A stretch of DNA of 20,339 nucleotides. Source: Nitrososphaeraceae archaeon. Its GTDB lineage: Archaea; Thermoproteota; Nitrososphaeria; Nitrososphaerales; Nitrososphaeraceae. The notes beneath the pieces were generated by a model. That model made no database searches. It saw nothing but the letters and a program-made list of their open reading frames with translations, and had not been told where the DNA came from. Below, one piece after another: positions 20,202 to 20,339 of this stretch. Where the stretch lies: positions 1 through 20,339 of the forward strand of contig DATFEP010000021.1 of the NCBI GenBank assembly GCA_035250975.1. The letters are read 5' to 3'. The translations under genes were made by a program, and so were the position numbers. Position 1 is the stretch's first letter. Every line of letters starts with the position of its first letter.

Positions 20202-20237
20202 GTAGCCCGGAGCAGATTCGAACTGCTGTCTCCAGGT

Positions 20238-20251
20238 TTCTTCTCAGAGAT
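20238..20251 (-). other. tRNA intron 3, 14 nt, canonical position 37/38
   Basis: CUCU(32-35)/GAAG central helix with a C34-A mismatch; bulges GG^A and AA^A; removal restores a 7-nt anticodon loop. Confidence 0.82.
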
Positions 20252-20267
20252 CCAGAGCCTGAAATCC

Positions 20268-20285
20268 CTAGCCCTACCAAGGAGT
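20268..20285 (-). other. tRNA intron 2, 18 nt, position 21/22
   Basis: GGCU/GGCU central helix (2 G-C plus 2 G-U); bulges AA^A and AG^G; removal restores the D-loop AGCGGCTAA and the GGAT D-stem strand. Confidence 0.82.
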
Positions 20286-20297
20286 TTAGCCGCTAGA

Positions 20298-20329
20298 TTC
20301 GGCATCAGCCATCTCAAGGAAAACTGATT
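20298..20329 (-). other. tRNA intron 1, 32 nt, position 10/11
   Basis: CGGU(5-8)/GCCG 4-bp central helix; CG^A bulge; 7-bp intron helix AUCAGUU/GGCUGAU; 3' junction AA^U. Confidence 0.88.
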
Positions 20330-20339
20330 CGACCGGGCT

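Follow-up and report, generated by a model that had tools for sequence, protein, structure and literature searches.

The last 137 nt of a 20,339-nt stretch of Nitrososphaeraceae DNA (analysed over its whole length and hereafter termed the window) very probably encode, on the minus strand at positions 20203-20339, a functional tRNA-Gln(CUG) interrupted by three protein-spliced archaeal introns at sites 10/11, 21/22, and 37/38, an arrangement best read from comparative sequence data as an old trait common to Nitrososphaerales, with no recent local gain. Conservation and covariation far beyond chance identify this locus as a genuine four-exon tRNA-Gln(CUG) gene with three short introns.

The window is the entire contig C79, one of 91 contigs in the assembly, and base 1 of the tRNA is the terminal base of that contig. 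By inspection, the minus strand read from 20339 to 20203 opens with AGCCCGG, closes with CCGGGCT-A, and contains the T-loop GTTCGAATC. A sequence-only reading of this DNA had proposed that taking out inserts of 32, 18, and 14 nt would leave a 73-nt tRNA-Gln; ARAGORN does call the joined exons (10 + 12 + 16 + 35 nt) as tRNA-Gln(ctg), with a 7-bp acceptor stem and an intact T-arm, and a recount returned the same figures for the further statements that almost half of the gene is intron (64 of 137 nt) and that exon 2 spans only 12 nt. The inserts lie at positions 11-42, 55-72, and 89-102 of the minus-strand gene. Exon 1 (20330-20339) holds positions 1-10, i.e., the acceptor 5' strand, U8, C9, and the first base of the D-stem. 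It is followed by the 32-nt intron 1 (20298-20329; site 10/11), in which an inner hairpin ATCAG/CTGAT precedes the GCCG that pairs with exon bases C5-U8, leaving the bulges C-G-a and a-a-U. Exon 2 (20286-20297) supplies positions 11-21, comprising the remainder of the D-stem 5' strand and the D-loop, after which the 18-nt intron 2 (20268-20285; site 21/22) forms a central helix of exon GGCU with intron GGCU, an inner helix of 2 bp, and the bulges A-A-a and a-g-G. Positions 22-37 are provided by the 16-nt exon 3 (20252-20267), which contains the D-stem 3' strand, position 26, the anticodon-stem 5' strand, and the part of the loop up to the anticodon CUG and G37. The 14-nt intron 3 (20238-20251) sits at the canonical site 37/38, with a central helix of C32:G, U33:A, C34xA, and U35:G flanked by a 2-bp inner helix and, on the outside, by the anticodon stem. 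Exon 4 (20203-20237; 35 nt) completes the molecule with positions 38-73, i.e., the anticodon-stem 3' strand, a 4-nt variable region, the T-arm, the acceptor 3' strand, and the discriminator A73; CCA is not encoded.

A second copy of the gene is present elsewhere in the assembly, at C89:511-643. We lean towards the view that this contig end is an assembly chimera, in which the 137-nt body derives from a co-occurring relative and the organism's own copy is the 133-nt three-intron gene on C89, which is 92% identical to the window's body. The 137-nt body matches that of genome G018 (L002) at 137 of 137 positions, as well as being 100% identical to a record titled Nitrososphaerales archaeon TH1177, whereas the 15 nt after the gene match another group (L020 and L021). 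Similarly, the downstream flank of L020/L021 (genomes G019/G016) shares 94% identity with C79:18703-20202, and that of L002 only about 75%. The C89 copy has the upstream flank of the L020/L021 group, with 94.8% identity over C89:644-2200; the end of C79 and C89 match opposite flanks of one locus and the two contigs therefore meet at this gene, the copies not being paralogues. Moreover, the contig ends exactly at tRNA base 1, with the two groups differing at position -1 (A or G), contigs from 4/4 RNA-library runs have the body attached to the other flank and diverge from the window at 20203/20202, and the loose end of run X15 is the reverse complement of the flank of L002. These features would probably reflect an assembly switch inside the identical 3' exon, i.e., a conserved tRNA at which the assembly of a mixed population became entangled. 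However, real recombination or gene conversion within that exon would look the same, the RNA-library runs examined may not contain this organism, and C89:1-510, beyond the second copy, finds no good match in relatives (67-74% over 129-170 nt). The three-intron Gln(CUG) gene is real at the locus either way, since a chimera changes only whose gene it is.

Upstream of the gene, in the 70 nt compared between C89 and L002-L024, there is a conserved A/T-rich box (gataaaat.aaatat) at about 32-47 nt, together with a conserved leader ending in tagctcgag(a/g) directly 5' of tRNA base 1; a T-run lies 3' of the gene. The window itself stops short of the upstream part, i.e., of the A/T-rich box and the leader.

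Splice-site geometry was evaluated with a rule in which a 4-nt exon strand ending two bases short of the exon's 3' end pairs with a 4-nt intron strand ending two bases short of the intron's 3' end, such that each bulge measures 3 nt and is cut following its second base. The sequence-only reading had held that each splice site follows this rule, and at all three sites the 4-nt strands, the 3-nt bulges, and the cut after the second base are indeed as described; this needs qualifying in that intron 3 attains only 3/4 central pairs and that introns 1 and 2 are of the relaxed kind. At intron 1, the central helix CGGU/GCCG has 4/4 pairs, one of them U-G, and the inner hairpin stem is of 5 bp. The central helix of intron 2 (GGCU/GGCU) likewise has 4/4 pairs (two G-U and two G-C), with an inner stem of 2 bp, and that of intron 3 (CUCU/GAAG) has 3/4 pairs owing to the C34xA mismatch, again with a 2-bp inner stem. 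An intron-side helix is thus present at all three introns in the window (5, 2, and 2 bp), and it covaries at intron 1. No exon-side outer helix of at least 2 bp was found at introns 1 and 2, which are therefore relaxed motifs, the anticodon stem at intron 3 being the only such helix; relaxed motifs are said to require a broad-specificity endonuclease in the accessible portions of PMC4090602 and PMC4033280. In the part available of a 2026 preprint (bioRxiv 10.64898/2026.10.13.758758), a boundary with 3/4 central pairs is also classed as "relaxed", a class described as often arising by chance; the 3/4-pair boundary of intron 3 in the window lies at the canonical site and has helices on both flanks. 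The central helix of intron 1 competes with the acceptor stem, and in the minimum-energy fold of the 137 nt the acceptor stem is kept and the intron 1 motif is absent, with a z of -1.81 that is not clearly better than shuffles; this single fold carries no information on other folds that the precursor might adopt.

When the 137 nt were searched by BLAST against 40 related genomes plus the window's own (41 in total), matches with 84-100% identity were recovered in 24/24 same-genus genomes, 23 at full length and one truncated by a contig end. Across the 25 genus sequences, 3 of the 73 exon columns are variable versus 38 of the 68 intron columns (23/33, 7/19, and 8/16 for introns 1, 2, and 3, respectively); exons 1, 3, and 4 are invariant in 25/25, all three variable exon columns fall in the D-loop portion of exon 2, and intron 1 ranges in length from 26 to 33 nt within the genus. 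The exons thereby appear to be under selection and the introns free to vary. Beyond the genus, a scan of one genome per species, using a pattern that fixed exon motifs only, returned at least 118 stretches. Among the matches listed (150 loci plus contig C89), 143 of 151 sequences parse as three-intron Gln(CUG) genes, corresponding to 118 distinct sequences among those matches, with introns of 15-37, 12-26, and 12-24 nt.

Pairing was then counted in the 112 distinct listed genes with intron 2 at 21/22, over seven pairs per intron (four central, three inner) placed by reference to the intron ends. Standard pairs fill 99.4%, 91%, and 82% of the cells for introns 1, 2, and 3, respectively, compared to 18-35%, 38-59%, and 50-71% in a control for which the 3' partner was slid by 1-2 bases, and the observed value was reached by 0/200 column shuffles for each intron. 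Double-sided compensatory changes occur at 4/7, 4/7, and 1/7 pairs of introns 1, 2, and 3. For intron 1, the central pairs are retained in 109-112 of the 112 listed genes, five of them with a double change from G6:C to C6:G, and the inner helix shows 4-5 standard pair types per position among the listed genes. The central pairs of intron 2 are retained in 111-112 of 112, with the fully Watson-Crick GGUC/GACC found in three records. At intron 3, the central pairs are C:G in 112/112, U:A in 110/112, and U:A or U:G in 112/112, with the C34xA mismatch present in 108 of the 112 distinct listed genes and replaced by C:G in only two; such retention argues that the mismatch is tolerated or selected, and would make it no local accident. 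This covariation was not built in by the search, since the pattern fixed exon motifs and left the intron bases free. The helices demanded by the bulge-helix-bulge rule are preserved via compensatory change, and the gene, its exon/intron boundaries, and its conservation are shown.

These same data bear on whether a real gene might be cut at other boundaries, for instance with intron 2 excised elsewhere in the repeated GGCTA so as to leave G instead of A at position 21. The repeat does permit 18-nt removals that differ at position 21 only, and intron 3 can be shifted by one base with an identical product, because the intron and exon 4 each begin with A; however, the cut chosen by the earlier reader fits the helix and bulge geometry in 111-112 of the 112 listed genes and keeps A21, and we regard other boundaries as very unlikely. 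To our knowledge, A21 is near-universal in tRNAs. Least probable of all is a decaying tRNA pseudogene or tRNA-derived remnant with CAG read by another tRNA, for which one might invoke the score under the Rfam cut-off, the heavy interruption, and the intronless CUG gene of two genomes from another family (G047 and G041), but which is at odds with near-invariant exons beside introns that vary and covary, with the gene's presence in all 24 genus genomes searched, and with the finding of no alternative CUG gene in this genome.

As for the age of the functional three-intron gene, the architecture occurs in at least 118 species-level genomes, in records titled Nitrososphaera, Nitrosocosmicus (cultured strains included), Nitrosopolaris, Nitrososphaeraceae, Nitrosopumilales, Nitrosomirales, and Nitrosothermus, these labels being the record titles. 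It is therefore a normal trait of the group, with no lineage-specific burst. Among 12 other-genus genomes of the order, the CUG genes of which were parsed by eye, a D-arm intron (at 21/22 or 24/25) and a 37/38 intron are present in 12/12, and the 10/11 intron in 3/12 (G027, G030, and G038). Such a distribution favours retention over a long time, intron 1 having been gained or lost on some occasions, and it speaks against the suggestion in the sequence-only reading that this lineage may have undergone its own wave of intron gain. Intronless tRNA-Gln(CUG) genes are found in G047 (L172) and G041 (L190); these have a different body with the acceptor AGCCCCG, and belong to the same family as the genomes with a four-intron gene described below. 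Three records titled Bathyarchaeota/-eia (L039, L055, and L146) also hold a three-intron gene, with an intron 2 central helix that is fully Watson-Crick; either the architecture predates Nitrososphaerales or these bins are mislabelled. Far from a recent local burst, the three introns are an old interruption that has been stably inherited and maintained through compensatory change in many genera, which makes the gene well suited as natural material for learning what features the thaumarchaeal EndA demands.

The gene is readily overlooked. The earlier reader had anticipated that default annotation could miss it, and this proved correct for both tools applied to the unspliced form: ARAGORN makes no call on the 137 nt or on the window, and Rfam at the gathering threshold gives no match on the window, the tRNA model in E-value mode yielding only a misaligned match of 18.4 bits versus a cut-off of 29. 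At the level of the whole genome, ARAGORN with intron search returns 32 calls with no Gln(ctg) among them, and the Rfam tRNA model returns 40 matches at E <=10, of which 31 exceed the cut-off and nine, including both CUG copies, fall below it. BLAST of the joined exons against the genome recovers the copies on C79 and C89 and, beyond these, nothing but the T-arm and acceptor portions of the UUG gene. To the proposed check that this be the sole tRNA-Gln(CUG), the answer is divided: neither ARAGORN with intron search nor BLAST revealed an intronless CUG gene in this genome, but a second three-intron copy is present at C89:511-643.

The tRNA-Gln(UUG) gene lies on the minus strand of C12 at about 48574-48702, where ARAGORN reports an intronless 72-mer. 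The AGCCCGG strand of this gene is in fact 28 nt further upstream than that call, and the gene has an intron at 10/11 with the same site and geometry as in the CUG gene (central CGGU/GCUG and inner GGGA.../...UCCC); no 37/38 intron was found in it. Copying of intron 3 from the UUG gene, which would explain C34xA, was considered and set aside, there being no evident local donor because the genome's UUG gene is devoid of a 37/38 intron; older events of this type may have occurred. As a separate observation, several Gln genes with a 10/11 intron, namely the C12 UUG gene and the Gln genes of L027, L153, L160, L161, and L163, have an extra GCCCGG placed 1-4 nt upstream of their first tRNA base, a feature that the CUG genes of the genus to which the window belongs do not have. 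This upstream GCCCGG could pair with the acceptor 3' strand while intron 1 engages exon bases 5-8. On ARAGORN/Rfam annotation, the genome is left with no tRNA for CAG codons and with a mis-called tRNA-Gln(UUG); inference of completeness or codon usage in these abundant soil archaea therefore needs an intron-aware tRNA search.

With respect to the splicing machinery, profile search detected two proteins in the genome with the PF01974 (EndA catalytic) domain. The first, α-like protein (184 aa) contains both EndA domains and matches the crenarchaeal chains 2cv8_A (E 3e-44), 3p1z_B, 3ajv_B, and 2zyz_B over its full length. The second, β-like protein is divergent and has no His at the site aligned by eye with that of the α-like protein. 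From these two sequences we infer an EndA of the two-subunit type, along with the presumed roles of its subunits, their assembly, and their activity. This agrees with the contention of the sequence-only reading that non-canonical introns need a broad-specificity EndA, the genome encoding a full-length α-like protein and a divergent second EndA-domain protein. A heterotetrameric EndA is assigned to Thaumarchaeota by reviews (available portion of PMC4090602), and a specific loop with a conserved Lys is described as required for relaxed motifs in the accessible text of PMC2724299 and PMC5829648. The β-like gene (C81; L032:1190-1812) is present as two overlapping open frames, of which one (86 aa) covers the N-domain and the other (113 aa) the C-domain. 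In 12 matches from other genomes of the genus, the C-domain open frame is of 203-208 aa in five and of 124-133 aa in four, the remaining three matches comprising a 198-aa frame interrupted by a stop codon and a pair of fragments from G003. A frameshift, gene splitting, or a faulty assembly might each account for the two-frame state. RtcB is present as well (C51:28921-30228; 582 bits; open frame of 493 aa).

We propose the following sequence of events, in which the cutting, the joining, and their order are putative. Transcription of the 137-nt precursor would start from a promoter situated upstream, past the end of the contig. Pairing of four exon bases with four bases near the intron 3' end would present two 3-nt bulges at every intron, with a two-subunit EndA cutting after the second base of each. 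RtcB would then join the four exons into the 73-nt tRNA, and the introns would probably be circularised by the same enzyme. In four of the six RNA-library runs listed (X15, X16, X17, and X20), assembled contigs gave seven records on the stretch, all of which are intron-bearing with no exon joints listed; in such contigs, DNA carry-over and precursor RNA would look alike and rare forms are dropped.

Relatives of the gene provide two further leads. In six distinct genes among the matches listed (L027/L117, L072, L092, L119, L124, and L142; from deep-branching lineages whose record titles include Nitrosomirales and Nitrosothermus), the intron of the D-arm is at 24/25, i.e., 3 nt downstream of 21/22, with a perfect CAAG/CUUG central helix. 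Five of these six introns equal intron 2 of the window (20268-20285) in circularly permuted form, with 16/16 bases identical after rotation and one 2-nt gap, the two 8-nt blocks being in swapped order; none of 2000 shuffles (0/2000) equalled this match. No such rotation was seen in the sixth gene, from a record titled Nitrosothermus. Each form also carries the block needed for the central helix only by the other form. It is conceivable, though on present sequence comparison doubtful, that the Gln(CUG) locus records intron movement, with an excised and circularised intron having been re-inserted at a neighbouring site competent for a bulge-helix-bulge; if true, this would be a concrete footprint of reverse-splicing-like mobility of a tRNA intron. 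Convergence is possible instead, as both blocks resemble or complement the neighbouring exon.

The second lead is a four-intron Gln(CUG) gene, found in G030 (C77:11421-11639 = L161:222-440; inserts of 38/19/45/44 nt), in G049 (C182:7916-8123 = L163; 40/17/37/41 nt), and as a third variant on the minus strand of L193:415-618 (31/23/29/48 nt). The four-intron pattern was detected in 2 of 401 genomes of the order, at full length only in G030 and G049, and in three metagenome contigs, i.e., L193 and two near or exact copies of the G030/G049 forms (L194 and L195). The sites are 10/11, 21/22, 25/26, and 37/38, with a 4-nt exon GGAT, and about two thirds of the gene is intron. Removal of the four inserts leaves 73 nt, which ARAGORN, run on two of these genes, calls as tRNA-Gln(ctg). 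At the additional 25/26 intron there are 3/4 central pairs, and the inner helix differs in each of the three variants. A register giving this intron a strict central helix (GGGA/UCCC) was rejected, as the product would then be 75 nt long and three bases would separate the D stem from the anticodon stem; a register shifted by one base is preferred, since it yields a length of 73 nt and leaves the inner helix uninterrupted in each variant. A four-intron archaeal tRNA gene was found in the literature searched only in the Asgard preprint (bioRxiv 10.64898/2026.10.13.758758), the available part of which reports up to five intervening sequences per gene; four are therefore not unprecedented. Both the permuted intron and the form with four introns provide starting points for tests of intron movement and accumulation.

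Finally, the three-intron gene can be set against known systems. The sequence-only reading had regarded triple-intron tRNAs as rare and mainly a matter of Thermoproteales, a view that is not borne out by the literature, in which multiple non-canonical introns in Thaumarchaeota are already published. In its available text, PMC8450103 describes tRNA genes with multiple non-canonical introns in Crenarchaeota and Thaumarchaeota, with an archaeal maximum of three introns, and states that a Thaumarchaeota-specific intron model in tRNAscan-SE 2.0 raised the count for this clade to 107 non-canonical introns; as far as that text goes, these are the same phenomenon in the same clade as the window's gene. 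The phenomenon is thus already published for Thaumarchaeota, and this particular gene was not found described in text searches: the literature text returned no description of a three-intron tRNA-Gln(CUG) in Nitrososphaerales, although the supplements of PMC8450103 or GtRNAdb may list the gene.

Further afield, the tRNA genes of Thermoproteales (Pyrobaculum and Thermofilum; Sugahara et al. 2008, as cited in the accessible portions of PMC4033280 and PMC8450103) resemble that of the window in having up to three short introns at canonical and non-canonical sites, strict or relaxed bulge-helix-bulge boundaries, and a heterotetrameric EndA in the host. They differ in belonging to another phylum-level lineage and in that their introns are described as a rapid recent spread, whereas the window's gene keeps the same three sites across an order, which points to inheritance. 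Closer in phylogeny is the tRNA-Gln(CUG) of Caldiarchaeum subterraneum (PMC3082918), where, in the part of that source available, the same isoacceptor, multiple introns, and a heterotetrameric EndA are reported from a sister lineage; this likeness covers no intron positions. The Asgard archaea (bioRxiv 10.64898/2026.10.13.758758) share introns missed by standard annotation, with several per gene and up to five in one according to the portion of the preprint available. They represent another phylum, however, and repeated independent gains are argued there, in contrast to the long retention suggested here for the tRNA-Gln(CUG) of Nitrososphaerales.
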